From contig JAFWFN010000019.1 in NCBI GenBank assembly GCA_017515565.1, positions 17,785 through 81,784 on the forward strand: a DNA stretch of 64,000 nucleotides, written 5' to 3'. Positions 764 through 40,112 of this stretch are shown piece after piece. The notes under the pieces are model-generated. The model was not told the DNA's origin. It saw only the letters and a program-made list of their open reading frames with translations, and ran no database searches. The translations under genes and the position numbers were made by a program. Position 1 is the stretch's first letter. Each line of letters opens with the position of its first letter. Source of the DNA: Halomonas sp. Lineage in GTDB: Bacteria; Pseudomonadota; Gammaproteobacteria; Pseudomonadales; Halomonadaceae.

Positions 764-790
764 TTATCGGCCGCTAAACAAAAAGCTGTA
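764..790 (-). promoter_or_regulatory. Putative sigma28 (FliA) promoter for the PAS-GGDEF gene
   Basis: Minus strand TACAGCTT-N11-GCCGATAA versus consensus TAAAGTTT-N11-GCCGATAA: perfect -10, 6/8 at -35, exact spacing, intergenic. Confidence 0.65.
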
Positions 791-11317: not shown

Positions 11318-11374
11318 ATCGTTCTCCACTTAGCAAAGGTGTGCGTGGTTTAGTCAGTAAGATGCTGCCCGCAC

Positions 11375-13692: not shown

Positions 13693-14271
13693 ATGCAAAC
13701 GTACACCTCTTTCCCAACGCTTGTGATTAGCACCATGGCGAGCGCCACCCTTTGGGTTGCCGCGCCCTTCGCCGCAGCGGCTACGTTTAACATTGAGCAG
13801 CCCGACACCCATGGCCATTGGCAGTCGATGGTGCTTGCCCTGGGTGACGAACGCCACGTGCGCGCAGTGGAAACCCACAGCTACTCAGATGCGACCTTAA
13901 GCCTCAACGCGACCCAGGGCGTTTGTGATCTACCTTGGCTGGAAATGCGCGTTACCCTTGAGCAGCAACAGGGGGAAAGCAAAGCGGTCAATCTCGTACC
14001 GGCTAGGCTGCGTATTGATGAGCAGCCCATCGTGGATACCATGGCGGAATTTATTACCGAGCGCGGCGACGATGGCTTTTACGCACACTTCTATCTCAGC
14101 GAAATGCCTGCATTAATAGACGACATGCGCCAGGGCGAGCAGCTATTTATCGGCTTTGACCAAGAAGCGAGCGCACCGTGGTATATGACGTTTAGCCTGG
14201 AAGGTGCTGATAGCGCCATTGGGCGCATGCAATCGCTGTGCGATGCCTTCTTATCTACTGATGCCCCCTAG
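13693..14271 (+). CDS. Secreted hypothetical protein
   Basis: 192-aa ORF; signal-peptide-like N-terminus ending AAAA; C-terminal FSLEGADSAI..LC reminiscent of IalB/VasI-like proteins. Confidence 0.7.
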   Translation: MQTYTSFPTLVISTMASATLWVAAPFAAAATFNIEQPDTHGHWQSMVLALGDERHVRAVETHSYSDATLSLNATQGVCDLPWLEMRVTLEQQQGESKAVNLVPARLRIDEQPIVDTMAEFITERGDDGFYAHFYLSEMPALIDDMRQGEQLFIGFDQEASAPWYMTFSLEGADSAIGRMQSLCDAFLSTDAP

Positions 14272-17010
14272 CTTATCGGCATGAATACACGCCTCGTCTT
14301 GTAGCCGTAAATGTTCGATGGGCTGGGGCCGCGAGAAGAAGTAGCCCTGGAAGGAGAGACACCCCTGGGCATAGAGCCAGTCACGGTGCGCTTGAGTCTC
14401 AACTCCCTCTGCAATGACCTCCAGCTCCAAGCTGTGAGCCAGCGCAATGACGGTTCGTACAATCGCGGCGTCGGCGGGGTCATCCAACACATCGCGAACA
14501 AACGACTGGTCAATTTTAAGCTGGTCCAGGGGGAGCTGCTTGAGGTAGGCCAGCGATGAATAGCCGGTGCCGAAATCATCCAGTGAGAAGCGAATCCCCA
14601 GCTGCCGCAGAGCCTCCATGCGGCAACGCACTTCGGCAATGTCCTCCATGAGCAGTGACTCGGTCACTTCAAGCTTTAGCCGCTGCGGATTGGCCCCGGT
14701 ACGTGCTAAGACTGCTTTTATTTGTTCAACAAAACCTTCTTGTCGGAACTGGTTAGGGCTAACGTTAACCGCAGCACACAGCGCTGAGGTATGCGGCTGC
14801 TGCGACCAGACCACTAGCTGCTGACAAGCCGTTTCCAGCACCCACTCACCAATTATCCCAATGAGGTGCGTTTCCTCCGCTAGCGGAATAAAGACGCCCG
14901 GTGACACAATACCGCGCCTGGGATGCACCCAGCGCACGAGCGCCTCAACGCCCACGACCTGGCCACGCTCATCCACCTGGGTTTGGTAGTAGAGCGAGAG
15001 CTGCTGTCGTTCTATCACGTGCCGTAGGTCAGATTCTAGCTGGGCACGCTCCATCACTGCGGCTTGCATGGAGGGGTCAAAAAAGCACAGCGCATTGCGC
15101 CCAGAGGCTTTGGCCTGGTACATCGCCAAATCTGCCTGCTGTAAAATTTCGCTTACGCCTACCGCCTCCCCCGCAAATAGCGTAACGCCAATACTGCCAG
15201 AGACCTGGAGTGGGTGGTCATCAATGACCAACGGTTCTCTGAGTGCGGTCAGCAGCTTATAAGCAACACCTTCTGCATGCTGCGCAGCCACCGCGATATC
15301 GTCCCCCAGCTCATGAAGCATAACGACAAATTCGTCGCCTCCCAAGCGGGCGGCGGTATCACTGTCACGCACAATACCCGCGAGCCGTTTGGCAACGGAT
15401 ACCAGTAACGCATCGCCTAGGTAGTGGCCCAGGCTGTCGTTAATGGTTTTGAAGTTGTCCAGGTCAATAAACATCACCGCGCTGTAGTGACTCTCCTGCC
15501 GTGTCTCCCGCTGCCGGGCCTCAATGCGGTCAATTAAAAGGCGACGGTTGGGAAGCCCGGTAAGGGCATCAAAAAACGCTAGCTGATGAATTTCCTGTTC
15601 AGCGGCTTTGCGCTGGGTGATATCACTCAAAGTAGCTACATAGTGGGTAACGGCGCCGCTATCATTGCAAACAACGCTAATGGTCAACCATTGGGGATAA
15701 ACTTCACCATTTTTACGCCGATTCCACACCTCACCTTGCCAGCGACCCTGCTCACTGAGGGATAGCCACATCTGTCGATAAAACGCGGCATCATGGCGGC
15801 CAGAATTCAGCATCGCCGGTGTAAGGCCCACCACTTCTTTTTCGTCGTAGCCGGTGATCTCACTAAAGGTGTGGTTAACCTGCACAATGCGGTTATCCGC
15901 ATCTGCAATAAACATGCCCAGGTGCGTTTCAAACGCCATTGCAGCAATTTTTAGCTGCGCGGCTTCAAGCTCAGTGGCTTGCTGCGCTTTTTTTCGGGCT
16001 GCCACCTCCTGAGTAAGCTGTTGGCGGTGTTCACGCAGGCCTTTTTCCGCCGCATAAAGGCGCCGGTAGTGGTGAAAGGCCGTCGCTCCCAGTGCTGCTA
16101 ATAGCCCCACTACCACCAAGATAATCCAAAACCGCCGCCACCAGTCGTTCAAATAAAAGGTGGTGTCTTCTCCACTGATGACTAGCCAGGGGGCATCACT
16201 CAATCGCCGCGCGCTAAACAGCCGCTGCGTATCATCGACTGGCGAAACGCGCTCCCACGTGGCCGCCAGTTGTTCACTTGCTAAAAAATGCGCCAGTTCG
16301 GGGGTACTGACCTCGCGGCCCAGCAAGGAGGGCGCTTCCTCGCCCCCCTGAGAGCGTTGCATGATGACACGGGGCGTAGCATCTAACAGTGCTAGACTAG
16401 CGCCTTCGTTCAGGGTTAAACGTCCCATCAGCTGCACAAAATAAGCAGGATCTAACCGCGCAACGATATAGGCCTCCGGCTCCCCAACGCTGTTTTCTAC
16501 GCTTAGTAGGTGGAGCAGGCGAAGTCCATCCGCTCTCTCTGACCAGTAAAGGCGCGAGACGACATCGCGGCGGGCACTTTGCCTGGCTAACCCAGACAAA
16601 ACCTCCTGTACGCCAACATCAAACCGCGTACTCTGAAGCGGTAGTGTTGATGCCAGTACATTGCCTTGCGGATCAAGCAGGCCAACTTCATCCCAAAGTG
16701 CGACTTGGTCGCGTTGCTGCAACAAATAGTGCGTCAGCACAGTCGTATCAATACGCTCGTCATGGGTGAGTTGATAGAGCGCCTCAACGCTCTCAAGGGC
16801 ATGACGTGAGGTCTCGAGGGCGCTTCCTAACCACTCCGCCACTACATCAGCACTAGCACCTGTACGCGACTGCGCCGAGGTTTGCTGGTTGAGATAGTAG
16901 GTGCGCATCTCCCACACCACCAGCATGATGATACTTGCCAGTAATAGGCTGCCAAAGAGCCCTACCCATCTAGGGGAGAGGTAGCGCCACTTCTCACTCC
17001 AATACCTCAA
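14251..17010 (-). CDS. Membrane Cache-like sensor-PAS-GGDEF-EAL protein
   Basis: Two TM segments flank a periplasmic region; PAS/PAC; RLGGDEF with RDSD I-site; EAL, DDFGTGYSSL, EGVE, QGY. TTG start overlaps the upstream stop (TTGA). Confidence 0.95.
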   Translation of the reverse strand: MRYWSEKWRYLSPRWVGLFGSLLLASIIMLVVWEMRTYYLNQQTSAQSRTGASADVVAEWLGSALETSRHALESVEALYQLTHDERIDTTVLTHYLLQQRDQVALWDEVGLLDPQGNVLASTLPLQSTRFDVGVQEVLSGLARQSARRDVVSRLYWSERADGLRLLHLLSVENSVGEPEAYIVARLDPAYFVQLMGRLTLNEGASLALLDATPRVIMQRSQGGEEAPSLLGREVSTPELAHFLASEQLAATWERVSPVDDTQRLFSARRLSDAPWLVISGEDTTFYLNDWWRRFWIILVVVGLLAALGATAFHHYRRLYAAEKGLREHRQQLTQEVAARKKAQQATELEAAQLKIAAMAFETHLGMFIADADNRIVQVNHTFSEITGYDEKEVVGLTPAMLNSGRHDAAFYRQMWLSLSEQGRWQGEVWNRRKNGEVYPQWLTISVVCNDSGAVTHYVATLSDITQRKAAEQEIHQLAFFDALTGLPNRRLLIDRIEARQRETRQESHYSAVMFIDLDNFKTINDSLGHYLGDALLVSVAKRLAGIVRDSDTAARLGGDEFVVMLHELGDDIAVAAQHAEGVAYKLLTALREPLVIDDHPLQVSGSIGVTLFAGEAVGVSEILQQADLAMYQAKASGRNALCFFDPSMQAAVMERAQLESDLRHVIERQQLSLYYQTQVDERGQVVGVEALVRWVHPRRGIVSPGVFIPLAEETHLIGIIGEWVLETACQQLVVWSQQPHTSALCAAVNVSPNQFRQEGFVEQIKAVLARTGANPQRLKLEVTESLLMEDIAEVRCRMEALRQLGIRFSLDDFGTGYSSLAYLKQLPLDQLKIDQSFVRDVLDDPADAAIVRTVIALAHSLELEVIAEGVETQAHRDWLYAQGCLSFQGYFFSRPQPIEHLRLQDEACIHADKLGGISR

Positions 17011-19010
17011 GATGGCTCCTTAATGGCGACTTCAACACGGTTGCGCCCACTGCGTTTTGCCTGGTACATCGCCATATCAGCGCGGGCGACTAACGTTTTG
17101 CAGCTGTCTCCGGGCCGCCATGCCGCGACCCCAACGCTGACGGTAATCGGCTGTGGTAATTTATTTACCTCCTGCGAGGCAACAAGGTGGCGCAGCCGCT
17201 CCGCCAGCCCAGCTGCCGCCTCTATATCGGAGTGAGTCGCTAGCACCACAAACTCTTCTCCGCCCCAGCGGCCAAGATGGTCACAACCGCGTAGAGAGCT
17301 TTCCACCAAGCGCGCTAGCGATACCAACACGTCGTCACCCAAGCTATGTCCGTAGCCATCGTTGATCTGCTTAAAGTGGTCGACATCGAACAGCAACACT
17401 GCAAAGACTGCGCCATAGCGTTTAGCTGCCACCAGCTCAGCGTCGATGGCTTGCTCAATGCGGTAGCGGTTCCACACCTGGGTAAGCGGGTCGAAATGCG
17501 CCAGCTGCTCTAAGCGCTGATTTGCTTCCGCCAGCGCTTTGCGCTCGCACTCTAGGTACATATTGAGCGTGCTGATTTCGTACGCTGAAATCGCCAACGT
17601 TAGGTCTTCCCCCAAGTCCACCGCCGCTAGGCGCTCGACCCGCTGCCACGACTCGCTTTTACCCACCACTTCTTCATGCCATGCCGCCGGGGGGGTGGCC
17701 ATGACGGCTTCCTGTGGGAAGGCTTTAGGCTGCATCGCCCAATAGAAGCTTTCTACCTGTTCAGGGCGGAAAAATAGCAGCCAGCCGCGCTGGGCGGGGT
17801 TCACGGGCAGGGGTACCGCTAGCACACCACACTGCTCGGGCATGGCTAGCGATGAGGTTAACGGCTCCTTAGAGATATCCCGGGTACACCACGGCCCGCT
17901 GTGTACATGGGCTTTATCCAAGCGCCTAGCCAACTGGCTAATCGCCTCTGGGGCAGGCGTATTACCAGACTGAAAAACGCTGCCCTTCGCCCATAGTGCC
18001 ACGCCGTGGGAACGAAACAGTGCCATCCAGGTATCTGCCTGTTCAGCTAAAAGTTGCTGGGGGCTTTGCGGCTCTACGCGTGCTTTGGTTGAAAGCGCCA
18101 GGCTATCCTGCACACGCTGTAGATAGCGCGCTTCTTGACGTGCCCGCAGCAGCAGCAGGCGCTGAGTCGCCATTTGCACCAGCATGCGCACTGCGTCACG
18201 CACCGGAGGAGCCACCGGATGTGGTTTCGCCGAATAACAAAACAGCAGCCCCCAAAGGCCAGTATCGCTCTGCATAGCAACGCTTAACGCCCCGCGAACG
18301 CCAAGACGGTGCAGATAGCGTTGACGCTCTGGAGCAGGGGCACGCAGAAAACTATCGTTAAGTGCCACAGGGCAGTCACGGGGGACTAAGTGTTCACTAG
18401 GCGCTGCCACATCCTCAATTAAGCGCACCGGGTGGCGCTCGTAGGCGAGGCGTAAGGAAAGGGGGAAATCGCTGGCGGGAAAACGCTGGCCTAGCAGTGT
18501 CGGCAAGCCGCTGCCGCATGCTTCGGCGACGATCAGCCCGTGCCAGTCGCTATCAAAGTGGCAGATCGACACGCGATCGTGACCGGTCAGCTCTTGAACA
18601 GCCCGCACCAGGTAGTCAAGCAACTCCTCTTGATGACTCGCTTCCGTCAGCCGCAGCAGGCGCTCATTCACCGTTCCTAACAAGCGCCGTTTCCCAATCG
18701 GTGTTAGTGGTTCAATTTCCACCACAACGTAGGCGCCTGAACGGTAGGCATACAGCTGAAAGCGCGTTGGGCTCGCCGGGCGGGTAAAGGTTAGCGGCCC
18801 GGCCAAGCGCTGCTGGCCCTGTAGCTCGTGGCGAAGCCGTTGGCTTAGGCGTTTACCAAGCACTCCCGACAGCATCTGATCACGCCCGTCGGTAACGGTC
18901 GTGCCAACAAGTGCGGCAAAGTTGCTACTGAAAGCTTGAATGCGCCGACTGTCAGCATCCAACACCAGTAAAGCGCCAAACGACTGAAGTAAAGGGTGTT
19001 GCTTCGGCAC
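17007..19010 (-). CDS. Bacteriophytochrome-fold (PAS2-GAF-PHY) diguanylate cyclase with degenerate chromophore pocket
   Basis: LQSFGALLVLD, LTGHDRV, RFPASDFP, LWGLL, FFRPE..FYWA match the BphP photosensory core; C-terminal DPLTQVWNR...RGCD..GRWGGEEF. Confidence 0.92.
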   Translation of the reverse strand: MPKQHPLLQSFGALLVLDADSRRIQAFSSNFAALVGTTVTDGRDQMLSGVLGKRLSQRLRHELQGQQRLAGPLTFTRPASPTRFQLYAYRSGAYVVVEIEPLTPIGKRRLLGTVNERLLRLTEASHQEELLDYLVRAVQELTGHDRVSICHFDSDWHGLIVAEACGSGLPTLLGQRFPASDFPLSLRLAYERHPVRLIEDVAAPSEHLVPRDCPVALNDSFLRAPAPERQRYLHRLGVRGALSVAMQSDTGLWGLLFCYSAKPHPVAPPVRDAVRMLVQMATQRLLLLRARQEARYLQRVQDSLALSTKARVEPQSPQQLLAEQADTWMALFRSHGVALWAKGSVFQSGNTPAPEAISQLARRLDKAHVHSGPWCTRDISKEPLTSSLAMPEQCGVLAVPLPVNPAQRGWLLFFRPEQVESFYWAMQPKAFPQEAVMATPPAAWHEEVVGKSESWQRVERLAAVDLGEDLTLAISAYEISTLNMYLECERKALAEANQRLEQLAHFDPLTQVWNRYRIEQAIDAELVAAKRYGAVFAVLLFDVDHFKQINDGYGHSLGDDVLVSLARLVESSLRGCDHLGRWGGEEFVVLATHSDIEAAAGLAERLRHLVASQEVNKLPQPITVSVGVAAWRPGDSCKTLVARADMAMYQAKRSGRNRVEVAIKEPS

Positions 19011-19030
19011 GAAAATAGCCTCGAAAAAGT

Positions 19031-19705
19031 CTATTCACCCTTGACCTGCTGCTTTAGCAACAGCTCAACGCGCCGATTGGCTGCTCGCCCTTCTGCGGTC
19101 GCGTTACTTTCCATGGGTTGGGTGTCGGCATATCCGACCGCCCGCATTCGTGAAACAGCGACTCCCTGGCGCTCAAGGTGGCGCACAACCGCAATCGCGC
19201 GACCTACCGAGAGCTCCCAATTCGACGGGAACCGAGGAGTAGCAATGGGTATATTATCGGTATGCCCTTCTACCGAAATTTGACCTTCAAAGGCCTCAAG
19301 CGCCGTTATCAGGTTTTCTAACACATCCTGTCCTTGGGCCGTTAGCACTGCATCGCCACTGGGAAACAACAGGCTATCGTCGATACGCAGGGTAAGGCCT
19401 TCACGGCCCTGGGAAACACTGACCCCGGGAATATTTAGCCCTGCCATCTGCGGCCTTAGCCCCTGGTGACGAGGCTGAATACCGGTGGCTAAGGTTGCCA
19501 GGGGCAGTGAAGTAATCGCACTGGCCGAGCGCATTCTGTCGCTATCAAATGCCTCCCCCCCTCCTGGTGGCGTTAATGCCAGCAGGAGGACAAAGAGGGT
19601 GATTAACAGCGTCAAAACGTCCAAGTAGCTCGTTAACCAGCTCTCATCACCCTCGCCTGCCGCAGGGGGAAGTTCCAGCGCATGACGGGCTTCGCTATCC
19701 AGCAT
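19031..19705 (-). CDS. Second stator B subunit (MotB/PomB/MotS family, OmpA-like domain)
   Basis: WLTSYLDVLTLLITLFVLLL TM segment with the essential Asp; VEGHTDNIPI...SNWELSVGRA...NRRVE. Confidence 0.9.
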   Translation of the reverse strand: MLDSEARHALELPPAAGEGDESWLTSYLDVLTLLITLFVLLLALTPPGGGEAFDSDRMRSASAITSLPLATLATGIQPRHQGLRPQMAGLNIPGVSVSQGREGLTLRIDDSLLFPSGDAVLTAQGQDVLENLITALEAFEGQISVEGHTDNIPIATPRFPSNWELSVGRAIAVVRHLERQGVAVSRMRAVGYADTQPMESNATAEGRAANRRVELLLKQQVKGE

Positions 19706-19709
19706 GGCG

Positions 19710-20528
19710 CTACCCTTTTGTCGCGGAGCTAGGCGTGGCGCGTGGCTTTACAGTGGCATCGCGTATTTCGTCGTGGTAGTTGGCAACAAAGGAGTTGAGT
19801 GTTTCTTCAATAAACGACGGCAAGCGACGTTTGGTGATCAGCGATATACCTTCAAGCACCATATTCATGGTGATGAGGCGCTCTTCGGTACGACGCTCAA
19901 GCTTAACGGCGATAGGCTTAAACACTAGGTTGGCGAGCAAGATACCGTAAAACGTGGTGAGCAAGGCAACGGCCATGCGCGGGCCAATGACCTCCAGGTC
20001 ACCCGCATCCATTACCTCAAGCATATTGACCAACCCCACCAAGGTGCCAATCATGCCAAAGGCAGGCGCATAGGTTGCCATTGTGCGGAAAATTTGTGCC
20101 TCCGCATGCTCGCGCGCTTTTAACCGTGCTATGCGCCAGCGCAGCATGTCGAAGATTTCATCCTCTTTGGTATTGGCAATCACCAGTTGAATGCCCGTGC
20201 GTAGAAACGGGTTACGGGTGTGCTCAAGCTCTTTTTCCACCGCCCGAACATCGCCTTTAAACCATAGCCGGGACATCGACACGAGTTCGTTAATGTCATC
20301 TCGAACATAGGTGTTTTCACGGCGAAACACTAAGCCTACCAAGCGCACTACCCGAAGCACTTCTTTCAGCGGGTAACTGATAAACGTAGCGGCCAGCGTG
20401 CCGGTGATGACAATCGCTAACCCAGGTAAATTAAGAAAGCTTTCTGGGGACTCTGCGGTAAAAAACAGCACGCTTACCAGCAGTAGAATGCTGGCAGATA
20501 TACCGATCAGCGTAGATGGGTTCATCAA
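19710..20528 (-). CDS. Second stator A subunit (PomA/MotP-like)
   Basis: APAFGMIGTLVGLVNML and IGPRMAVALLTTFYG closely follow PomA/MotP; four TM segments. Confidence 0.9.
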   Translation of the reverse strand: MMNPSTLIGISASILLLVSVLFFTAESPESFLNLPGLAIVITGTLAATFISYPLKEVLRVVRLVGLVFRRENTYVRDDINELVSMSRLWFKGDVRAVEKELEHTRNPFLRTGIQLVIANTKEDEIFDMLRWRIARLKAREHAEAQIFRTMATYAPAFGMIGTLVGLVNMLEVMDAGDLEVIGPRMAVALLTTFYGILLANLVFKPIAVKLERRTEERLITMNMVLEGISLITKRRLPSFIEETLNSFVANYHDEIRDATVKPRATPSSATKG

Positions 20529-20564
20529 CGGCTCCTCGCCGGGTTCAAATAAGTAAGTGAGAGA

Positions 20565-21263
20565 TTAATTGGCATCGTGCAAACGGGCGCGTAAACGGCT
20601 AACGGCCTGACTATGCAGTTGGGAGACACGGGACTCGGTAACCCCCAGCACAGCGCCCACCTCTTTTAAGTTCATCTCTTCTTGGTAGTACAGCGCCATT
20701 AACAGCTTTTCTCGCTCTGGCAGCGCCTCAATCGCTTCAATCAAGGTTTGACGTTGTTGGGCGTCCAACAACTGGTCGAAGAGCAAATTGCCAGCGCCGC
20801 TACTAGGCTCACCGCCCTCTGTCACCAGTTCTTCAAACGGCAGCAGTTGGCCGCTGTTGGTGTCATTGAGTAGCTGCTGATAGTCGCTGAGCGGCATCTC
20901 TAAATCACGCGCGATTTCCCCCTCTTCGGGAGCGCGACCTAGCTGTTGCTCCAGCCGCCGCACCGTCTCATCCATCGCCCTGGCCGAACGCCGCACGCTA
21001 CGGGGTAGCCAGTCGCGCGTGCGTAGCTCATCCATCATGGCGCCACGAATTCGCTGGCTGGCAAAGGTGGCAAATGTCGCGCCTTGGGCCGCATCAAAGC
21101 GCCCAAGGGCTTCTAATAACCCCACCATGCCCGCCTGGATAAGATCATCTAGCTCGATGCTCGCGGGCAACCTCACCTGCAGCGTTAAGGCCTGACGTCT
21201 CACCAGTGGCATGTATTGGGTTAACAGCTCACTCTGTTTGATCCTGCCTTGTGCTGTATACAT
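20565..21263 (-). CDS. fliA: Flagellar sigma factor sigma28
   Basis: DDLIQAGMVGLLEA, RIRGAMMDELRTRDWLPRSVR, LGVTESRVSQLHSQA. Confidence 0.98.
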   Translation of the reverse strand: MYTAQGRIKQSELLTQYMPLVRRQALTLQVRLPASIELDDLIQAGMVGLLEALGRFDAAQGATFATFASQRIRGAMMDELRTRDWLPRSVRRSARAMDETVRRLEQQLGRAPEEGEIARDLEMPLSDYQQLLNDTNSGQLLPFEELVTEGGEPSSGAGNLLFDQLLDAQQRQTLIEAIEALPEREKLLMALYYQEEMNLKEVGAVLGVTESRVSQLHSQAVSRLRARLHDAN

Positions 21264-21290
21264 CCTCGTGCCTCGCGGCTAAAACACTTG

Positions 21291-21740
21291 TTACTGGTAA
21301 TTCACGATGGCTTGCAGCCCCTGTACCCGCACCGGCCGTTGGCCAGGCGTTAAGGTAAAACGAAAGTACAGCGGCGCATCGGCGTGCTTTCCGGCTAATG
21401 CCATAGTGGAACCCCGCATGCTGTTAAGTGGGACGCACTGCTCAGGGTGACATAGCCAAGCATTTACTGGCGACGTAGGTGGCGCCTCATACCGCCACTG
21501 TATCCGATCGATCACTGCGTTTCCTACTTGCGCTGCGCTGGGCGCCACGATGGGGTGGCTGCGGCTGACCCTGTCGCTCATGGCGACCATGACACTGGGA
21601 ACTTGGCTGCTCCAACTGCCAGGCGCCGCCTGCACGCTACTTGCCAACCCCATCGCGATGAACGCCGCCGTAATGCTCACCGTGATCACCTTTAAAATGC
21701 TCCTGCCCTGCCTACTTTTTCGCTGCATGGGTACTCCCAA
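21291..21740 (-). CDS. flhE: Periplasmic flagellar protein FlhE
   Basis: Signal peptide; GSWS...WRY...AWLCHPEQCVPL...F.F...QAIVNYQ pattern; position after flhA/flhF. Confidence 0.82.
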   Translation of the reverse strand: MGVPMQRKSRQGRSILKVITVSITAAFIAMGLASSVQAAPGSWSSQVPSVMVAMSDRVSRSHPIVAPSAAQVGNAVIDRIQWRYEAPPTSPVNAWLCHPEQCVPLNSMRGSTMALAGKHADAPLYFRFTLTPGQRPVRVQGLQAIVNYQ

Positions 21741-21808
21741 TAACGCTACTAGATAGTGGCCAGTACTCGTCTGCCAATACCCACTTGCTTATAAGCGCTG
21801 CAACCCCC

Positions 21809-22375
21809 TTACCGGGCAAGCAACAGCAGTTCTGTGTCTAAATAACCTGCGGCAGCTTCTCGCAAGTTATCGAGTAATCCTTGGCGTGGCAAGTGGGGCT
21901 CATGCAGCGCCAAAAGGCGCTTTGGGCCTTTGTTGTCATGCACTTGTCGCAAAACTCGGTACATCGGCATAAACGCATCCGCATCGCTACTTACCCACAA
22001 CGCCCACCGCGGGTAACGCGCCACCAGTAATGGCAGATTGGCTGTAGCAGGGTCAACTAGGTGAATGTCCCAGCCATCTGGGTCGCCTGCCCAGCGGCGC
22101 CCCAACGCCGACCATTGGCTGAGGCGACTTCTTACCTTGTTAACCTGGTGCTGATGGGTGGATAAGCCCACCACCACCAGCGGCTGTTTCGGCGTGGGGG
22201 GTGCCTCTACTGTCGGCACCATGGCGGATGCAGCATAAACGGAAGCCGCTTCCTTTGAGACGGGCTCTGCGGGGACTGGCTCATCCGGCAGAGTATCTTC
22301 GGGCATTTCTCCGCGCTGCTGACGCTGTAAATCCGCCCATTTACGCAGCCCCGCTGCCTGGTCTTGGCTGCTCAT
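21809..22375 (-). CDS. FlhG/FleN-related protein lacking the ATPase P-loop
   Basis: N-terminal DQAAGLR motif; sits directly after flhF (ATGA overlap); no KGGVGKT; C-terminal half weakly resembles FlhG. Confidence 0.65.
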   Translation of the reverse strand: MSSQDQAAGLRKWADLQRQQRGEMPEDTLPDEPVPAEPVSKEAASVYAASAMVPTVEAPPTPKQPLVVVGLSTHQHQVNKVRSRLSQWSALGRRWAGDPDGWDIHLVDPATANLPLLVARYPRWALWVSSDADAFMPMYRVLRQVHDNKGPKRLLALHEPHLPRQGLLDNLREAAAGYLDTELLLLAR

Positions 22376-24546
22376 ACCATGCCCTCTCGGCTCACGCTAC
22401 CTAGCTGACGAATAGCATCGCGGGCCATAAAGGCATGCACTAATCCGTCAAGTAAGGCGGTATCGCGCCGTTTTCGCTGGGTGCCTAGCAGCAGCATCAG
22501 GTCGGTACGCAGAGCAAGAGCAGCGTCATCGTCGGCACTGTCCAAATGCCCTGCTACGGCGGCAGCGCCGCTGGCCATGAGCAGGCGTATTTCAGCACTG
22601 ACATCGCCACTGTCGGCTTCTTTAAGCTGCTGCCATGCCCGCTTGGTCAGCGCGGTGACCCCTTCGCTTTGCAGTTGGGTAGCCAGTAAAGAGAGTGCAT
22701 CAGCGCCTAATCGAGCAGGGCTTAACCAGTAGCGCCGTGCAATACGCTTAGCGCTTTCGGGGTCACGAATCTCTCCGTACCACGCCAGTAGAGCATTGCC
22801 TGACGCGTCGGTCACTTCTGCGTAGGCACTCCACAACTGCATAGGCTGCCCACGAAAACGCACGCTTATATGGTGCGTAAGCGTGCTATCAATAAATAAC
22901 TGGCGCTGGGCACAACGCGCGCCCTGGAAGTATACCCGCTGACTGGCAGGCACCAAGCTGACCCAGGTCAGGTGTTGGGCTTCCAACCATGCCAGCGCTT
23001 CGGTGTCGGGGAGTGCAGGCAGCAAATGGACGGCGATGCCGTGTGCATCACTTTGTGTTGCCAAGCGAGGCTGCCAACCGGCGGGCTGGCGATGCTGCAG
23101 GCAGGGTAGCGCCGACCATGCCCCGTTAGCATCTAGCCCAATATCTGGCATTGACCAGTCACAGCCACGCTCATTGCGGCGGGGGGACCATGCCATCCCT
23201 AGGAGGTTATCTGCCGGGGGCGTGTCAGCGAGTAAACGATCAAGCCGCCCATCCTGCACTGCGCTTGGCAGAGCGGCGATATCCCATACGGCCTCTAAGC
23301 GGGCAAAACCCGCCACTCGCTGACGCAGGCGCGTCAATACCGATGAGAGACGACGCCCTTGGCCAAGCACATCCCGAGACCAGCGGGGCAGACTTACCGG
23401 CGCGGAAGCAGGCTGGCTGGCTAACGTGGATTGGCTGTCCAGCGCCTGATCGATAAGCGCCGCGGGGTTCGCCACGGCCATATCTTCGGGCACTTGCTGA
23501 CCGTGGGAGCCAAACAGCACACGCATCCCATGGCGCATGACAATATCAAGCACCGGCGCTAAGCGTCCGGCTTCGTCCTGCTTGGTGATAATACAGTCAT
23601 CTAGCTCGGCGCCCGCCGCACGGGCGGCTTGCCGATAGCGTAGTACGACTTCTTCGAGCGTTTCCGGCTGGCTGGCAGCGTTTAATAGCAGTACTAACCG
23701 CACGGTCGATTGCCCCCCCTGCAGGTGAGCGATTTGCTCAATAACCCGCTGGTCACGCTGGCTCATGCCGACCGTATCAATGATTACCCACTGTTTACCC
23801 TGTAGCCGACCTAGCAGATCATCAATGGGCTGCTCCGCATCGAGGGCATACATCGGCGTATCGAGCAGACGCGCATATATCCGCAGTTGCTCGTGGGCGC
23901 CGATACGGAAGCTATCGGTGGTGACAAGCGCCACCGGCCGCGTACCGTGGCGCATCACAAAACGTGCCGCGAGCTTAGCGGTGGTGGTGGTTTTACCTAC
24001 GCCCGTTGGGCCCACCAGCGCGACAATGCCCGTTTGGTCAAAAAAGCTGTTTTCCTGGTTAAGCACCGGTAAGCGCGCCATCAGCTGTTCGCGCAGCCAT
24101 ACAAGCGGCTGGTCACTGTCGGCAGAGGCTAGTACCAGTGAGTCCGGCAGCCCCGCCAGCACTTCGCTGCTTAACTCATCGCTAAAACCAACGCGCGCTA
24201 GCAGTTGGCGCAGCCGCGTGGGCGTATCCGCCGCTGCAGCAGCGGCAGGTGCTTGCTGTTGGCGGGTCAGCAGCTCACGCATATCCTGCATTTCACGCAG
24301 CAAACGCTCGCTCATGGCCTGAAGGGGGTCGGAGGCAGGCAGCGAGAAAGCGGGGGGAGAGGCGGGAGGCGGCTCTGGCGTGGGGGCTGGGTCAAAATGA
24401 TCGACCGCTTCATCCGCCATCGCCAGAATCTCAACGCCGCCCTCGGTACGCCGGTTAGCAAGAATCAAGGCGTCATCGCCCAATGCCTCGCGTACTTGGC
24501 GCATCACATCACGGCTATTTGCTCCGACAAAACGTCTAACACTCAT
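22372..24546 (-). CDS. flhF: SRP-type GTPase FlhF with long C-terminal extension
   Basis: MSVRRFVGANSRDVMRQVREALGDDALIL; G1 GPTGVGKTTT; TDSFRIGAHEQL; DTVG; TKQDE; GQQVPED; then ~350 extra residues. Confidence 0.93.
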   Translation of the reverse strand: MSVRRFVGANSRDVMRQVREALGDDALILANRRTEGGVEILAMADEAVDHFDPAPTPEPPPASPPAFSLPASDPLQAMSERLLREMQDMRELLTRQQQAPAAAAAADTPTRLRQLLARVGFSDELSSEVLAGLPDSLVLASADSDQPLVWLREQLMARLPVLNQENSFFDQTGIVALVGPTGVGKTTTTAKLAARFVMRHGTRPVALVTTDSFRIGAHEQLRIYARLLDTPMYALDAEQPIDDLLGRLQGKQWVIIDTVGMSQRDQRVIEQIAHLQGGQSTVRLVLLLNAASQPETLEEVVLRYRQAARAAGAELDDCIITKQDEAGRLAPVLDIVMRHGMRVLFGSHGQQVPEDMAVANPAALIDQALDSQSTLASQPASAPVSLPRWSRDVLGQGRRLSSVLTRLRQRVAGFARLEAVWDIAALPSAVQDGRLDRLLADTPPADNLLGMAWSPRRNERGCDWSMPDIGLDANGAWSALPCLQHRQPAGWQPRLATQSDAHGIAVHLLPALPDTEALAWLEAQHLTWVSLVPASQRVYFQGARCAQRQLFIDSTLTHHISVRFRGQPMQLWSAYAEVTDASGNALLAWYGEIRDPESAKRIARRYWLSPARLGADALSLLATQLQSEGVTALTKRAWQQLKEADSGDVSAEIRLLMASGAAAVAGHLDSADDDAALALRTDLMLLLGTQRKRRDTALLDGLVHAFMARDAIRQLGSVSREGMV

Positions 24547-24614
24547 GCTTTACCTTTTGCCTCTGCTTGAATGGCTGCCACTGTTTTATCGGCGTTTATG
24601 CCTATCTCCGCTGA

Positions 24615-26696
24615 CTAGCGCCCACCCACTACGGTGGTCACCCGCAGCGTACGGTCATCTGGCACTTCGGCCTGAGACATCACCACCATATGACGCATGC
24701 GTCGGCGCAGGAAGCGCGACAACACAGCACGTAATGAATGCTGCACCACCAGCACTGGGGCTTCCCCACTGGCTTCGTGCTGTTCTAGCGCTTGCTGTGC
24801 CTGATTCATCAGGGTGTCTGCTAAGCCTGGCTCCATGGCGCCGTTGCCGTTCATCGCCTGAATCAGCACTTGCTCTAGCTGGGCATCCAGCCCCATCACG
24901 TTAAGCGTTTCTTGCCCGGCAAACCATTGCTGAGTGATGGCGCGGCCCAGCGCAATGCGCACTAGCGCAGTGAGCTCATTAGGATCTTTCTGCTGCCCAG
25001 CGAACTCCGCCAGGGTATCCAGCACAGTGCGCATATCGCGAATAGAAACATCTTCATCCAGCAGGTTCTGCAGGATGCGCTGAAGCACCGTCAGGGAGAT
25101 CGCTTTTGGCACGACTTCTTCCACCAGCGATTTTTGATCATCACCGAGCTTATCCAGCAGTTTTTGCACTTCCTGGCGACCGAGCATTTCCGGCGAGTGG
25201 CGGTGCAACAGGTGATTTAAATGGGTGGCAATGACCGTACTCGCATCCACCACCGTATAGCCATACACCTGGGCGTGTTCACGCTGACTGGCATCAATCC
25301 AGATAGCCGGGAGGCCAAAGGCGGGCTCTTGAGTGGGCGTACCCTGTAGTTCGCCAGATACCTGCCCTGGGTCGATAGCCAGCCACTTGCCTGGCTGTGC
25401 CTCGGCACGTCCAATCTCCGCGCCCTTCATCGACAGTACGTAGGTGTTGGGGGAAAGCTCCAAGTTATCGCGGATATGCACAACAGGGGGCAGAAAGCCG
25501 ACCTCCTGAGCAAACTTTTTGCGCACGCTTTTAATCCGGCCCAACAGCTCACCTTTCTGGCGCGAATCCACTAGCGGGATTAAGCGATGTCCGACTTCGA
25601 GACCCAAGGTATCCACTAACTGGACATCTTCCCAACTCGCTTCCGGAGTTTCTTGAAGTGGTGGAGGGGCCGCAGCAATCTCCTCCTTGACCAGCGCCCG
25701 GTCTTTTTGACGGATCAACAGCCATGCAAGCCCGGCAAGCAGCGCCGTAAAAATCAGGAAAACCAGATTGGGCATGCCGGGCACCATGCCCAATAGCCCC
25801 ATAACGATGGCGGCTAAAATCATAACCTGGGGGTTAACGAACAGCTGGCTGATCATTTGCTGACCAACGTCCTGATCGGTATTTACCCGCGACACCGTGA
25901 CACCCGCTGCGGTTGAGATCACCAGTGCCGGAATCTGGGCGACCAAGCCATCCCCAATGGTTAATAGTGTGTAGGTACGGGCAGCATCACCGAAGTCCAT
26001 GCCATGCTGCATCATGCCAATCAGCAGGCCGCCGATAATATTAACCACCATAATAACCAAACCGGCCATGGCGTCGCCGCGTACAAACTTACTGGCGCCA
26101 TCCATTGAGCCGTAAAAATCGGCTTCTTGGGCGACTTCTGCACGACGCTTTTTAGCGTCCTCTTCACCAATTAACCCAGCGTTTAAGTCTGCATCAATGG
26201 CCATCTGCTTGCCGGGCATGGCGTCCAGCATAAAGCGGGCGCCAACTTCGGCAATCCGCCCAGCGCCCTTGGTAATAACCATGAAGTTGATAATAACCAA
26301 AATCAGGAAGACCACTAGGCCAACCGCAAAGTTGCCGCCTACCAGAAAGGTGCCGAACGCTTCGATAACTTTACCAGCGGCATCGCCCCCTTGATGCCCT
26401 TCCATGAGTACCACCCGGGTGGAGGCAACATTGAGCGATAGTCGCAGCAAAGTGGTGAACAGCAGCACCGCTGGAAACGCCGCAAAGTCCAGCGGCTTTT
26501 GCGCAAACATGCTGACCAACAGCACCATAATGGCCAGGGCAATATTGAAGGTGAAAAGCAAATCCAGCGCGAAGGGCGGCAAGGGCAGAATCATCATGCC
26601 CAAAATCATTAGAATCAGCAGCGGCCCAGCGAGCAGCTTCATGCGCACATCGCCCATCCAATCGCGCTGATTGATCAACTGGCCTAAGCCCTTCAT
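24615..26696 (-). CDS. flhA: Flagellar export gate protein FlhA
   Basis: RIAEVGARFMLDAMPGKQMAIDADL, FYGSMDGASKFVRGDA. Confidence 0.99.
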   Translation of the reverse strand: MKGLGQLINQRDWMGDVRMKLLAGPLLILMILGMMILPLPPFALDLLFTFNIALAIMVLLVSMFAQKPLDFAAFPAVLLFTTLLRLSLNVASTRVVLMEGHQGGDAAGKVIEAFGTFLVGGNFAVGLVVFLILVIINFMVITKGAGRIAEVGARFMLDAMPGKQMAIDADLNAGLIGEEDAKKRRAEVAQEADFYGSMDGASKFVRGDAMAGLVIMVVNIIGGLLIGMMQHGMDFGDAARTYTLLTIGDGLVAQIPALVISTAAGVTVSRVNTDQDVGQQMISQLFVNPQVMILAAIVMGLLGMVPGMPNLVFLIFTALLAGLAWLLIRQKDRALVKEEIAAAPPPLQETPEASWEDVQLVDTLGLEVGHRLIPLVDSRQKGELLGRIKSVRKKFAQEVGFLPPVVHIRDNLELSPNTYVLSMKGAEIGRAEAQPGKWLAIDPGQVSGELQGTPTQEPAFGLPAIWIDASQREHAQVYGYTVVDASTVIATHLNHLLHRHSPEMLGRQEVQKLLDKLGDDQKSLVEEVVPKAISLTVLQRILQNLLDEDVSIRDMRTVLDTLAEFAGQQKDPNELTALVRIALGRAITQQWFAGQETLNVMGLDAQLEQVLIQAMNGNGAMEPGLADTLMNQAQQALEQHEASGEAPVLVVQHSLRAVLSRFLRRRMRHMVVMSQAEVPDDRTLRVTTVVGGR

Positions 26697-27859
26697 GACT
26701 GCGCCTCACTGCCACCGGCATTGGGGCCGGGACTATCCATTTCCGGAGGAACCGGCAAATTATCAGGGGTGGGGGGCACCTCGCCTCCTTGTTGTGCAAC
26801 ATGCTTTAGGCGGTACGCCCAGGCCATCACTTCCGCCACAGCGGTATACAGTTCCGCAGGCACTTCGGCCTCTAAGTCCACGTGATGATACAGGGCGCGG
26901 GCCAAGGGCGCTGCCTCCAATCGTGGCACGCCCGCTTCTAAACCAATTTCACGGATACGTGCCGCCACCGCATCGGCCCCTTTGGCGACTAGCCGAGGCG
27001 CGCCCATACTGCCTTCCTGATACCTGAGCGCAATCGCATAGTGGGTAGGGTTGGTAATAATAACGTCAGCATCCGGTACTTTGCTCATCATGCGGCCACG
27101 CGCCATCGCCTGCTGTTGCTGACGAATGCGGCCTTTTACATGGGGGTCGCCCTCTGACTCTTTATGCTCTCGCTTTACCTCTTCCTTGCTCATGCGCAGC
27201 TTTTTAGCATTGCTCCACAGCTGGAAAGGCACATCGATGAGGATGACCACAATCAGCGATAACACAATTAACCCAGCGGCTAACGCGGCCATATTTAGTG
27301 CAGTGACCAGCGCCTGCTGAATAGGCAGATCCATCAGCCCCATAAACGTGCCGATATTAACGTACAAAAAGGTTGCCGCGACGCTCCCCACCAGCACCGA
27401 TTTAGCAATCGCTTTGGCTAGCTCCACCAGTGCCTGAGGCCCGAATATGCGCTTCACCCCTTTAACAGGGTTGAGCTTTGAAAGCTTTGGCTGCATTGAT
27501 TTTGCCGATACCAGCCACCCCCCCAGCAGCGCAGGTGCCACCAACGCCACCACCACGAGGAGTACAAACAGCGGAATCATGGCAAACAGCGTGCGCTGGC
27601 CAAGATCCAGGGCATTCACCAACATGGGAGTGCTTTCCATTACTTGGCGTCGCTCAAACAGGAATGCCCTCTCCATAACCATTCCCAACTGGTCATAGAG
27701 CATCTGCCCCATGCTCCAAAGCCCTATCACGCCCCCCAGTAGCAGCATAAAAGTGGTCAGCTCTCGGGAGCGGGGAACCTGACCCTCTTCGCGCGCTTTA
27801 TCCAAGCGTCTGGGGGTGGCCTCTTCGGTTTTTTCCTGGTCGCTGTCGTTGTCTGCCAT
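26693..27859 (-). CDS. flhB: Flagellar export switch protein FlhB
   Basis: EKTEEATPRRL; autocleavage motif ITNPTHYAIAL. Confidence 0.99.
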   Translation of the reverse strand: MADNDSDQEKTEEATPRRLDKAREEGQVPRSRELTTFMLLLGGVIGLWSMGQMLYDQLGMVMERAFLFERRQVMESTPMLVNALDLGQRTLFAMIPLFVLLVVVALVAPALLGGWLVSAKSMQPKLSKLNPVKGVKRIFGPQALVELAKAIAKSVLVGSVAATFLYVNIGTFMGLMDLPIQQALVTALNMAALAAGLIVLSLIVVILIDVPFQLWSNAKKLRMSKEEVKREHKESEGDPHVKGRIRQQQQAMARGRMMSKVPDADVIITNPTHYAIALRYQEGSMGAPRLVAKGADAVAARIREIGLEAGVPRLEAAPLARALYHHVDLEAEVPAELYTAVAEVMAWAYRLKHVAQQGGEVPPTPDNLPVPPEMDSPGPNAGGSEAQS

Positions 27860-39194: not shown

Positions 39195-40112
39195 TCATTC
39201 GGCTACGTCGGCCTGTGGCATGTCTGGTAGTAAAGCCTCTTCGGGCGAATCGCCCTCAGGTAACAGCACATCAGCGCCAAGAATACCTGGGTCGCGAATT
39301 GTCTCAGCAATTTCGGGTAACAGTACTAAAAGCTCAATACGCCGATTAATAGGGTCTGAGGGGGCAGTGTCAGGCAGCAACACCCTATCGGCAAAGCCCG
39401 ATACCCGCAGTAATTGACCTGGGTCAAGCCCACCGACCACCAACTCCCGACGCGAAGCATTGGCGCGGTCACTGGATAGCTCCCAATTACTGTAACCTCG
39501 ATAGCCACCCGCATAGGGCACGCTGTCGGTATGACCGCTGATGCTTAGGTCATTGGGCAATTCATTGAGTAATGGCGCGATAGTGCGTAGAAGGTTACGC
39601 ATATAAGGTGCCACCTGATCACTACCTAGTTGAAACATTGGCCGCTGCTCTGTATCGAGCAGTTGAATGCGCAGCCCTTCACGGGTAAGGTCAAAACGCA
39701 TTTGGTTGCGCAACTGGCGCAGCTCCGGGTCTAGCTCAATGGCTCGCTCTATACGTTCTTGTAAATCAGAGAAAAAACGCCTCTCTTGCAAGCTGGGCCG
39801 CGGCTGTAGAGACAAATCTACCCGGGCGCGCTCACCATCGCTATGGGCTGGATCAGGCCCGCCACCGGGAATCACCCGCGTACTACCACCCCGGTCGCCG
39901 GTCATCGCGGTTATCAGCGGTGTACTAAAGTACTCGGCAACACCGCGCCGCGTTTCATCACTGGAGACGCTTAAAATCCACATCACCAGGAACAGGGCCA
40001 TTAGCGCGGTCATAAAATCAGCCAAGGCGATTTTCCATGCTCCCCCATGATGAGCATGAACCACTTTTTTGCGCCGAATGACTATCGGGCGCTTGTCACC
40101 GCCCTTACTCAT
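39195..40112 (-). CDS. motB: Flagellar stator MotB (enteric H+-type)
   Basis: HHGGAWKIALADFMTALMALFLVMWIL; SGHTD, NWELSSDRA, NRRI. Confidence 0.97.
   Translation of the reverse strand: MSKGGDKRPIVIRRKKVVHAHHGGAWKIALADFMTALMALFLVMWILSVSSDETRRGVAEYFSTPLITAMTGDRGGSTRVIPGGGPDPAHSDGERARVDLSLQPRPSLQERRFFSDLQERIERAIELDPELRQLRNQMRFDLTREGLRIQLLDTEQRPMFQLGSDQVAPYMRNLLRTIAPLLNELPNDLSISGHTDSVPYAGGYRGYSNWELSSDRANASRRELVVGGLDPGQLLRVSGFADRVLLPDTAPSDPINRRIELLVLLPEIAETIRDPGILGADVLLPEGDSPEEALLPDMPQADVAE

Follow-up and report, generated by a model that had tools for sequence, protein, structure and literature searches.

In E. coli and Salmonella, PdeH (YhjH) and YcgR are co-regulated with the flagellar genes as separate class-3 genes; to our knowledge, the E. 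coli flagellar regulon contains no cyclase and no second stator. E. coli also has a local c-di-GMP module, DgcM-PdeR, composed of a cyclase and a PAS-GGDEF-EAL 'trigger' phosphodiesterase, whose genes are non-adjacent and which controls curli, not the motor. In the flagellar cluster of P. aeruginosa, motCD lies downstream of fliA. Two stator sets, MotAB and MotCD, serve one motor in P. aeruginosa together with SadC and FlgZ (bioRxiv 10.1101/483339; PMC12288467), and SadC binds MotC via its transmembrane region (bioRxiv 10.1101/483339). YcgR is a PilZ brake (PMC12713396), and in Shewanella the PilZ gene motL always follows the lateral motB (PMC8203827). Dual H+/Na+ stators are known as MotAB/MotPS in B. 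subtilis and PomAB/MotAB in S. oneidensis (PMC9039648, PMC5380961); we found no report of c-di-GMP enzymes in the stator operons of these two species. Phytochrome-activated diguanylyl cyclases form the PadC family, represented by IsPadC (PDB 5LLW; PMC5336353, PMC9587094).

The arrangement analyzed here, within a window of 64,000 nt (the whole stretch of DNA), is a variation on this known coupling of flagella and c-di-GMP. It resembles P. aeruginosa in having two stator sets, a DGC functionally tied to the auxiliary stator and a PilZ effector (the DGC and effector being candidates here). In P. aeruginosa, however, the SadC gene lies elsewhere and both stator sets use H+, whereas here the auxiliary stator bears a Na+ signature, motB2 is immediately followed by the gene for a soluble cyclase, and the GGDEF-EAL protein is the only membrane partner candidate. 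With S. putrefaciens MotL it shares a c-di-GMP gene directly downstream of the motB of one motor system, which in Shewanella thereby gains its own c-di-GMP control, but MotL is a non-enzymatic PilZ receptor of a separate lateral flagellar system. As in E. coli and Salmonella, a (here probable) phosphodiesterase and a (here candidate) PilZ brake accompany the flagellar genes, but in the window the fliA/stator run itself contains both a cyclase and a GGDEF-EAL enzyme. An H+-type and a Na+-type stator serve one flagellar system, as in B. subtilis and S. oneidensis (predicted here from residues), but this stator operon carries c-di-GMP enzymes. Like DgcM-PdeR, the window pairs a cyclase with a PAS-GGDEF-EAL enzyme; unlike them, the two genes adjoin and belong to a flagellar run. 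The cyclase shares PAS2-GAF-PHY, coiled coil and GGDEF with PadC, including GGEEF and the I-site, but differs in lacking bilin motifs and in the position of its gene in a stator operon.

Our best explanation, which we believe slightly more than we doubt, is that a long flagellar gene run of a Vreelandella/Halomonas genome ends here in a 3′ tail that encodes a Na+ stator, a blind PadC cyclase and a phosphodiesterase acting on the motor (Table 1). The interpretation given in an earlier note on this DNA is partly supported. The gene identities and operon-like packing that it named agree with Pfam and ORF spacing, and ORF coordinates confirm its five-gene single-strand run with gaps of 36, 4, 20 and −4 nt from fliA through motA2, motB2 and the cyclase gene to the GGDEF-EAL gene.

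Table 1. Coordinates of features in the window
Feature	Position	Strand	Description
192-aa ORF (hyp192)	13693..14271	+	convergent; N-terminus signal-peptide-like
GGDEF-EAL (hydrolase) gene	14251..17010	-	PAS, GGDEF, EAL (Pfam)
cyclase (DGC) gene	17007..19010	-	PAS_2, GAF, PHY, coiled coil, GGDEF (Pfam)
motB2	19031..19705	-	stator B subunit; TM Asp29, MotB_plug, peptidoglycan-binding OmpA-like domain (Pfam)
motA2	19710..20528	-	PomA/MotP/MotC-like stator A subunit; Pfam MotA_ExbB
fliA (sigma-28)	20565..21263	-	232 aa; Pfam Sigma70_r2/r3/r4; heads the stretch
flhB, flhA, flhF (724 aa), 188-aa ORF, flhE	21291..27859	-	upstream part of same run
motA1-motB1 (first stator, E. coli type)	39195..40978	-	directly after flhDC (41199-42073)
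YcgR-like PilZ-HD-GYP fusion	44714..46405	-	Pfam PilZ + HD_5; weak YcgR match

The junction of the last two genes of the run reads AAGGAGccatcTTGA, in which the TTG start and the TGA stop share nucleotides and a strong Shine-Dalgarno sequence (AAGGAG) precedes the TTGA. A scan of the region for terminator-like sites yielded 20, all inside ORFs, compared to 16.3 ± 4.4 in shuffled sequence, and none between the five genes is convincing, in agreement with the earlier claim. Sigma-28 consensus sites are enriched across the window (11 vs 1.3 expected), and one sigma-28-like site (41209-41235) is near motA1-motB1/flhDC; the same window-wide scan placed none within 14251-21300. The flhB-flhA-flhF-fliA run noted upstream is real and also includes the 188-aa ORF and flhE, with gaps of −4, 68, −4, 68 and 27 nt; its gene order is kept in 80/80 loci, and fliA is 74-92% identical across related loci (80/80). 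The flagellar block is ordered flhDC-motAB-cheAW-MCPs-cheRBYZ-flhBA..E, which we take to be the E. coli order. It ends at the 192-aa ORF, which overlaps the 3′ end of the hydrolase gene by 21 nt, has no match in Pfam or NCBIfam, and in most Vreelandella loci immediately follows either motB2 or the cyclase gene.

RNA from a V. titanicae-like relative is consistent with the proposed co-expression of stator and DGC: one contig spans fliA-motA2-motB2, and three runs gave contigs that extend beyond the motB2 stop into the cyclase gene. This RNA support reaches as far as the cyclase gene; co-transcription of the GGDEF-EAL gene with the rest of the run would be expected from its spacing. These data also bear on a rival explanation, possible but rather unlikely, in which the enzyme genes are operon-tail hitch-hikers: GGDEF/EAL genes would be inserted and lost at a permissive site after motB2 and feed the general c-di-GMP pool with no specific stator relation. 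Coverage of the cyclase gene body is patchy and shallower than that of motB2, as this explanation would predict, contig depth being a poor measure. Against it, the gaps of 20 and −4 nt, together with a 4-nt overlap of the motB2 stop by a PAS-GGDEF-EAL-type gene at locus L133, leave no space for independent promoters.

A survey of gene neighborhoods, named beforehand as a check, revealed that in 56/80 species the stator pair has a GGDEF, EAL or HDOD gene beside it; as the species are related, these counts are not independent events. This linkage of stator and c-di-GMP genes is real, recurrent and undescribed. It is found on both flanks and also in genera whose fliA lies apart from the stator, which argues against insertion at a merely permissive site, the systematic search having covered GGDEF, EAL and HDOD neighbors. 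The remaining 24 species have no c-di-GMP-type gene beside the stator (these loci were inspected in part). The cyclase gene directly follows motB2 in 36/80 species, a (Cache-)PAS-GGDEF-EAL gene occupies this slot in 9 and a stand-alone EAL gene in 6. The synthase/hydrolase pair claimed for the second stator is present in the window but rare, occurring at this position in only 2/80 species plus the window, and the commoner state is the cyclase alone.

Several of these observations favor hitch-hiking genes: the patchy distribution, a hydrolase in only three genomes, and different gene types in the slot in different genera. Independent deletions have left remnants of the cyclase gene in two species (L085, L090), indicating that the module is dispensable. 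At the slot the flagellar block also gives way to housekeeping genes (hyp192, ribonucleotide reductase), an edge where gain and loss may be tolerated, GGDEF/EAL genes are numerous in these genomes, and paralogous blind PadCs are encoded at non-flagellar loci, e.g. in B. campisalis. On the other side, the pairing of a blind PadC with a PAS-GGDEF-EAL protein recurs elsewhere, including in H. urumqiensis, where it lies in a flagellar cluster other than this one, and the cyclase is under strong purifying selection, with dN/dS of the sensor module (about 0.05-0.18) similar to MotB2.

The stator behind fliA had been called a second one, and the E. coli-type MotA1B1 is indeed the other set. MotA1 belongs to NCBIfam equivalog TIGR03818 (374 bits) and MotB1 to PRK09041 (331 bits), both above cut-off. 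In NCBIfam, MotA2 scores highest against MotP (180 bits) and PomA (159 bits) and MotB2 against MotD (171 bits), all below cut-off; MotA2 also matches the PomA structure 8BRI (E = 8e-32). MotA2 residues T162, T191 and T192 align with PomA T158, T185 and T186, three Thr reported for all Na+ stators (PMC10374538). This T/T/T pattern is found in 79/80 MotA2 orthologues, whereas MotA1 has Ala and Gly at the T158 and T185 positions. As judged from these residues, MotA2B2 is probably a Na+-coupled, PomAB/MotPS-like auxiliary stator, and MotA1B1 is predicted to be an H+-type stator.

That MotA2B2 misses the cut-offs of all named stator families could also suggest an ion-driven motor for a non-flagellar process regulated by the c-di-GMP enzymes, an idea to which we give almost no credence. 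The pair lies between fliA and the flagellar cluster end in 80/80 species, and the proteins it matches best are without exception flagellar stators (MotP, PomA, MotC/D, PDB stator structures). Plug and OmpA-like domain are present, the TM Asp is kept in 78/80 loci, and the MotA2 translation contains both conserved MotA prolines, at what we take to be the E. coli MotA positions. MotA2 identity of 86-96% across genera indicates strong constraint and likewise speaks for a flagellar stator.

The cyclase matches IsPadC over its full length (E = 8e-100), starting at IsPadC residue 30. GGEEF and the RxxD I-site are intact and invariant in 35/35 orthologues, and the coiled-coil linker keeps heptad register (+14 type, a 7-residue insertion vs IsPadC(+7)). 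The description as a phytochrome-fold DGC thus holds for the fold and the GGDEF domain, but chromophore-binding residues are lost, so that the phytochrome module probably no longer binds bilin and the cyclase is probably not a light sensor. Light-controlled motility by a functional photoreceptor (red/far-red, or with another tetrapyrrole bound non-covalently), as expected of canonical PadCs, is very unlikely, despite the homology to light-activated IsPadC, the linker register, retained equivalents of Tyr216, Arg254 and Tyr263 (D. radiodurans BphP numbering) and a His290-equivalent that is His in 31/35 orthologues. The IQPHG-equivalent motif of the cyclase is preceded by 8 residues, and the N-terminal bilin-Cys segment is lacking. 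Alignment with IsPadC and canonical PadCs reveals DFP for DIP, WAM for WAG and loss of the PRxSF tongue motif; the His260-equivalent is Arg in 34/35 orthologues, and the His290-equivalent is Tyr in the window cyclase. Pfam or NCBIfam searches of 63 window ORFs found no heme oxygenase. A degenerate Halomonas PadC is already known: the H. meridiana homologue (HmPadC+14) is described as 'missing all essential motifs' and could not be purified (PMC9587094), and the accessible part of that paper contains no discussion of its genomic context.

The GGDEF-EAL protein consists of a TM segment, a periplasmic double-PDC/dCache domain, a second TM segment, a NifL-like PAS domain, GGDEF and EAL. The dCache_1 Pfam match is weak (19.8 bits, below cut-off), but a profile of the N-terminal region matches PDB 3LIF (E = 3e-17); the PAS region matches NifL PAS1 (E = 2e-21). 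In NCBIfam the protein scores highest with DibA (635 bits against a cut-off of 980), and PRK10060 ('cyclic di-GMP phosphodiesterase'), presumably the PdeR model, scores 402 bits, also below cut-off. Because all EAL catalytic motifs (EAL, DDFGTGYSS, KID, EGVE, QGY) are intact in the translation, the protein is a probable phosphodiesterase, possibly bifunctional, for which we infer the net enzymatic direction.

Under our preferred explanation, the arrangement would function as follows, possibly with contact between stator and enzymes. MotA2B2 would supplement the H+ stator MotA1B1. The soluble PadC-derived cyclase may have been kept by selection as a bilin-free, dimeric regulatory scaffold, and the membrane dCache-PAS-GGDEF-EAL enzyme would in this lineage most likely be a signal-gated phosphodiesterase. 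Read-through from fliA or from more distant upstream promoters would yield stator and enzymes jointly, so that a cell that builds flagella and installs the Na+ stator would also gain a c-di-GMP source and sink. The balance of the two could depend on a periplasmic ligand sensed by dCache, on a redox or flavin-type signal perceived in the cytoplasm by PAS, and on some input to the blind phytochrome module. It would act on PilZ-type effectors (the YcgR-like PilZ-HD-GYP protein, for instance), braking the motor or changing which stator is used.

The earlier note had proposed the PilZ-HD-GYP protein as the target of this module, a link that the survey does not bear out. The protein is present in 48 species, some with and some without the cyclase, and its occurrence showed no association with that of the cyclase. 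It is a candidate c-di-GMP receptor of the flagellar cluster and may act as an effector: RxxxR and DxSxxG are intact and HD and GYP are present, while HHE is replaced by INE, with loss of these metal ligands.

The five genes from fliA to the hydrolase lie on one strand with intergenic gaps of 36, 4, 20 and −4 nt (fliA/motA2/motB2/cyclase/hydrolase), and the ORF coordinates reproduce exactly the spacing given in the earlier note. At the last junction (AAGGAGccatcTTGA), which carries a strong ribosome-binding site, the TTG start of the hydrolase gene overlaps the TGA stop of the cyclase gene. Pfam bears out all of the note's domain assignments, 'Cache' resting on a sub-threshold match plus a profile. 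Terminator-like sites all fall within ORFs and are no commoner than in shuffled sequence, in agreement with the claim that no terminator separates the genes. The stator pair beside fliA (MotA2B2) is, as claimed, a second set, with an E. coli-type pair (MotA1B1) encoded in the same cluster. The observation of genes, spacing and a second stator is therefore confirmed; its interpretation as a motility-control module is only partly supported.

Coordinates, strands and identifying matches of features in the window
Feature	Position	Strand	Match or location
fliA	20565-21263	-	Pfam sigma-70 regions 2, 3 and 4
motA2	19710-20528	-	Pfam MotA_ExbB
motB2	19031-19705	-	Pfam MotB_plug + OmpA
PadC-like cyclase, 667 aa	17007-19010	-	Pfam PAS_2, GAF, PHY, GGDEF
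GGDEF-EAL protein (hydrolase), 919 aa	14251-17010	-	Pfam PAS, GGDEF, EAL; dCache_1 sub-threshold
flhF, 724 aa	21809-24546	-	
ORF, 192 aa	13693-14271	+	
PilZ-HD-GYP gene	44714-46405	-	
sigma-28-like site	764-790	-	consensus match
sigma-28-like site	41209-41235	-	consensus match; end of flhC, ahead of motA1
sigma-28-like site	44602-44628	-	consensus match; just downstream of the PilZ-HD-GYP gene, before fliS
sigma-28-like site	46588-46614	+	consensus match
sigma-28-like site	61979-62005	-	consensus match

Against 1.3 expected matches, the sigma-28 consensus occurs 11 times in the window, a clear enrichment, and several of the sites precede flagellar genes. The site at the end of flhC is placed as the E. 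coli motA promoter is. None of the 11 matches lies within 14251-21300. The only RNA run found to match the window (X6) has near-equal contig depth across convergent genes, a DNA-like pattern, and the runs matching V. nigrificans (X47-50) assemble into contigs of 12-22 kb that hold no transcript information. The four informative runs come from a V. titanicae-like relative in which the cyclase stands alone, with no hydrolase after it; their contigs are unstranded and contig depth is a poor measure. One contig spans fliA, motA2 and motB2, and contigs in three runs extend from motB2 approximately 65-130 nt into the cyclase gene, supporting read-through from motB2 into the cyclase gene in this relative. 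Beyond that point coverage of the cyclase gene is patchy and, by this poor measure, lower, which leaves room for attenuation at the start of the gene.

A terminator or attenuator hairpin at the cyclase start was considered and rejected, as folding there is no better than that of shuffled sequence (z = −0.13 and −0.93). In a related locus (L098), a contig of run X41 maps to 11052-11565, except for its leading 23 nt, which align to 11573-11595 on the opposite strand; three further runs have contigs that end within 11495-11626, where no stable hairpin is predicted. The assembly may have created these ends artificially, or a genuine RNA 3′ end may lie early in the cyclase gene.

MotA1 and MotB1 are assigned to the E. 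coli type, each scoring above the cut-off of the corresponding NCBIfam equivalog model. The best NCBIfam matches of MotA2 and MotB2 are MotP, PomA, MotC and MotD, all below cut-off, so that no subfamily name is assigned. The pair nonetheless has the MotA_ExbB channel domain, the MotB transmembrane Asp, plug and OmpA-like anchor, and a flagellar gene context in all 80 loci surveyed. Aligned with Vibrio PomA (PDB 8BRI), MotA2 places T162, T191 and T192 at PomA T158, T185 and T186, a pattern kept in 79 of 80 MotA2 orthologues; MotA1 has A, G and T at these positions. The three threonines are found in all Na+-driven stators, and T158 and T185 are replaced by Ala in H+ stators (PMC10374538). From the residues at these sites, we predict that MotA1B1 is an H+ stator and MotA2B2 a Na+ stator. 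B. subtilis and S. oneidensis likewise combine H+ and Na+ stators, the pairing in the window being predicted from sequence.

The cyclase is a full-length homologue of IsPadC (PDB 5LLW; E = 8e-100, residues 8-659), the red-light-activated diguanylyl cyclase of Idiomarina, and has the complete PadC architecture of PAS2-GAF-PHY sensor, helical linker and GGDEF domain. As defined in PMC9587094, PadCs carry in their N-terminal segment a strictly conserved Cys that binds biliverdin. Canonical PadC homologues have this Cys about 14 residues upstream of the motif equivalent to IQPHG; the window's ORF begins 8 residues ahead of that motif ('LQSFG'), with an in-frame stop upstream, and so lacks the segment. 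Pocket and tongue motifs are also altered: DIP reads DFP, the His260 equivalent is Arg, WAG reads WAM and the PRxSF tongue motif is absent. The His290 equivalent is Tyr in the window, although 31 of 35 orthologues have His there. The Cys, DIP, both His and PRxSF are all retained in more distant homologues, from Oceanisphaera, Haliea, Halioglobus and an Aquisalimonadaceae genome, and the loss of chromophore residues is therefore specific to the Halomonadaceae clade.

The output domain shows no such decay. GGEEF and RGCD (the RxxD I-site) are invariant in 35/35 orthologues, and DxLT and DVDHFKxxND are conserved in the alignment, so by motif content the protein should be an active GGDEF diguanylate cyclase. 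The sensor module has a dN/dS of approximately 0.05-0.18, comparable to that of MotB2 (rough values, with dS saturated), indicating that it evolves under constraint. It offers a clear case of a photoreceptor module under selection after loss of its chromophore site, and prompts one to ask what a 'blind' phytochrome might sense.

The hydrolase has a periplasmic domain of approximately 250 aa between two hydrophobic segments. Pfam dCache_1 reaches 19.8 bits (cut-off 45). A profile of the N-terminal region from nine orthologues matches PDB 3LIF (E = 3e-17), which we take to be a double-PDC sensor, and KinD (4JGO) weakly; on this match the 'Cache' label seems reasonable. A homology search with the N-terminal sensor fragment returned nothing. 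For the PAS domain (15600-15950, residues ~360-475), the match is to NifL PAS1 (TIGR02938, E = 2e-21), an FAD-binding domain, hinting by analogy at a redox or flavin input. The EAL domain (Pfam E = 3e-73) has all the expected motifs: EAL(xR), N, ExxE, DDFG(T/A)GYSS, KxD, EGVE and QG. The best named NCBIfam match is the phosphodiesterase DibA, below cut-off. The protein is most likely a signal-gated phosphodiesterase; its GGDEF motif, with RxxD, is intact too, making dual cyclase/phosphodiesterase activity possible.

A candidate receptor is encoded elsewhere in the window, by a gene whose product joins a PilZ domain (E = 8e-11; the c-di-GMP-binding motifs RxxxR and DxSxxG intact) to a YcgR-like N-terminal region and an HD-GYP domain. 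The YcgR model scores E = 9e-7 and 28.7 bits against a cut-off of 400, and the HD-GYP extension is foreign to YcgR. HD and GYP are present in that domain, but INE stands in place of the HHE metal ligands, and the domain may therefore act in reception and not in catalysis. At the motor, the protein could plausibly serve as a c-di-GMP receptor. The earlier note had proposed that the module signals to it, but nothing ties it specifically to the module: orthologues occur in 48 Vreelandella/Halomonas species, several of them without the cyclase (V. aquamarina 558, V. sulfidaeris, Halovibrio variabilis and V. subterranea), and a test for co-occurrence of the PilZ-HD-GYP protein and the cyclase was negative. 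It is therefore a general component of the flagellar cluster rather than a dedicated partner.

To survey gene neighborhoods, we collected 80 species-representative loci via MotA2 and located in each the counterparts of the window's proteins and domains. The closest locus found is that of V. nigrificans (MotA 96% and FlhA 98% identical). Nearly all 80 loci contain the run cheZ-flhBAF-ORF-flhE-fliA-motA2B2, a few being cut by contig ends or missing one gene; in many Billgrantia and Halomonas loci other genes intervene between fliA and motA2. The PadC-like cyclase alone follows motB2 in 34 species, and the cyclase together with the Cache-PAS-GGDEF-EAL gene in two (V. nigrificans and V. rituensis). 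A (Cache-)PAS-GGDEF-EAL gene directly follows motB2 in nine, mostly Billgrantia, and a stand-alone EAL gene in six; five have only an HDOD gene, accompanied by an EAL gene in one of them, between fliA and motA2, and 24 have no such gene at the stator pair. A GGDEF, EAL or HDOD gene therefore touches the stator pair in 56/80 species, which are related and do not represent 56 independent events. The proposed linkage of a stator with a synthase/hydrolase pair stands as a recurrent c-di-GMP association, but the full pair is confined to 2/80 plus the window.

Of the 15 loci in which a GGDEF-EAL or EAL gene follows motB2, 14 have an HDOD gene between fliA and motA2, and eight of these 14 hold a further EAL gene in that interval. 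Genes of c-di-GMP type stand beside MotA2B2 in at least four structurally different arrangements. As the link persists where fliA is separated from the stator, the gene order argues for the stator, and not fliA, as the partner of these genes. On the separating genes we further observed that the HDOD gene splitting stator from fliA in Billgrantia and some Halomonas is on the opposite strand (L133:7675-9832, L145:8610-9809), and that Billgrantia also carry a stand-alone EAL gene within this interval.

The main rival explanation sees the end of the flagellar block as a place that tolerates insertions. Two features favor it, the patchy distribution of the genes and the rarity of the hydrolase. One cyclase-less species retains the last 28 codons of the gene (L085:11542-11625) and another the first 59 (L090:11522-11689), differing remnants that show two independent deletions. 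Tolerant insertion does not readily account for the tight gene coupling, seen also in a Billgrantia locus (L133) where motB2 and the hydrolase gene share 4 nt at their stop and start, for the restriction to c-di-GMP types of the genes found beside the stator in the 56 flanked loci, or for selection on the cyclase. Related pairs are also found away from the stator: H. urumqiensis has a blind PadC and a PAS-GGDEF-EAL gene between flaG and fliD, another flagellar cluster position (L162:6001-10547), and B. campisalis has both at a non-flagellar locus, its hydrolase 59% identical to the window's over PAS-GGDEF-EAL.

The best reading of the gene order is that the c-di-GMP enzymes would be members of the flagellar regulon, made together with a Na+-type auxiliary stator. 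A more specific proposal, which we consider improbable, is that a chromophore-less phytochrome has been co-opted as input module by a cyclase that serves a single stator type, reading the state of the Na+ stator (engaged or idle, ion flux, or direct contact) into c-di-GMP, with the GGDEF-EAL partner where present. If true, this would be a hard-wired stator-to-second-messenger feedback like the circuit inferred for Pseudomonas MotC-SadC, by which halophiles could select H+ or Na+ drive or detect surfaces.

PdeH and YcgR are members of the E. coli flagellar regulon. In the MotCD-SadC-FlgZ system of P. aeruginosa, the cyclase gene lies elsewhere, and its product contacts the stator via its membrane region (bioRxiv 10.1101/483339), and Shewanella MotL is a PilZ receptor whose gene always follows lateral motB (PMC8203827). 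The window differs from these systems and from PadC photoreceptors in that the enzymes sit in the stator run and the phytochrome module is blind. In the literature on Halomonas stators and on stator-linked cyclases we found no description of the arrangement, in line with the earlier note, although the degenerate form of the cyclase is already on record: the available text of PMC9587094 includes an H. meridiana homologue expressed too poorly for purification, and discussion of its genomic context was not found in that text. The window's cyclase has a 7-residue linker insertion relative to IsPadC(+7), consistent with the +14 label of the H. meridiana homologue. Crosstalk between stators and c-di-GMP is an active question in surface sensing, stator swapping and motor braking, and the link has so far rested on enzymes encoded far from motor genes. 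Here the enzymes are beside one specific, probably sodium-driven, stator across a bacterial family, and the natural variants (cyclase only, cyclase plus hydrolase, hydrolase only, nothing) provide a ready comparative and genetic system in halophiles that are culturable and non-pathogenic.

In this genome, from the Halomonas group now named Vreelandella, all 23 genes from 42073 down to 14251 (~28 kb) are on the minus strand, in the order flhDC, motA1B1, cheAW, MCPs, cheR, cheB, MCP, cheY, cheZ, flhB, flhA, flhF, a 188-aa ORF, flhE, fliA, motA2B2 and the two c-di-GMP enzymes. The first part (flhDC-motAB-cheAW-MCPs-cheRB-cheYZ-flhBA..E) follows the order of the E. coli region, the flhF...fliA-stator part is like Pseudomonas clusters, and the whole looks chimeric. 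FlhF has a C-terminal half of approximately 350 aa with no match in Pfam or NCBIfam. The 188-aa ORF, which overlaps the flhF stop, occupies the FlhG/FleN position of polar-flagellum clusters and lacks a P-loop; it has no match in Pfam or NCBIfam and no convincing one among PDB sequences. FlhF without FlhG is unusual within an FlhDC-type cluster. Converging on the hydrolase gene with a 21-nt overlap is a conserved 192-aa ORF whose N-terminus resembles a signal peptide and which matches no family in Pfam or NCBIfam; in relatives this ORF marks the border between the flagellar block and a ribonucleotide reductase gene.
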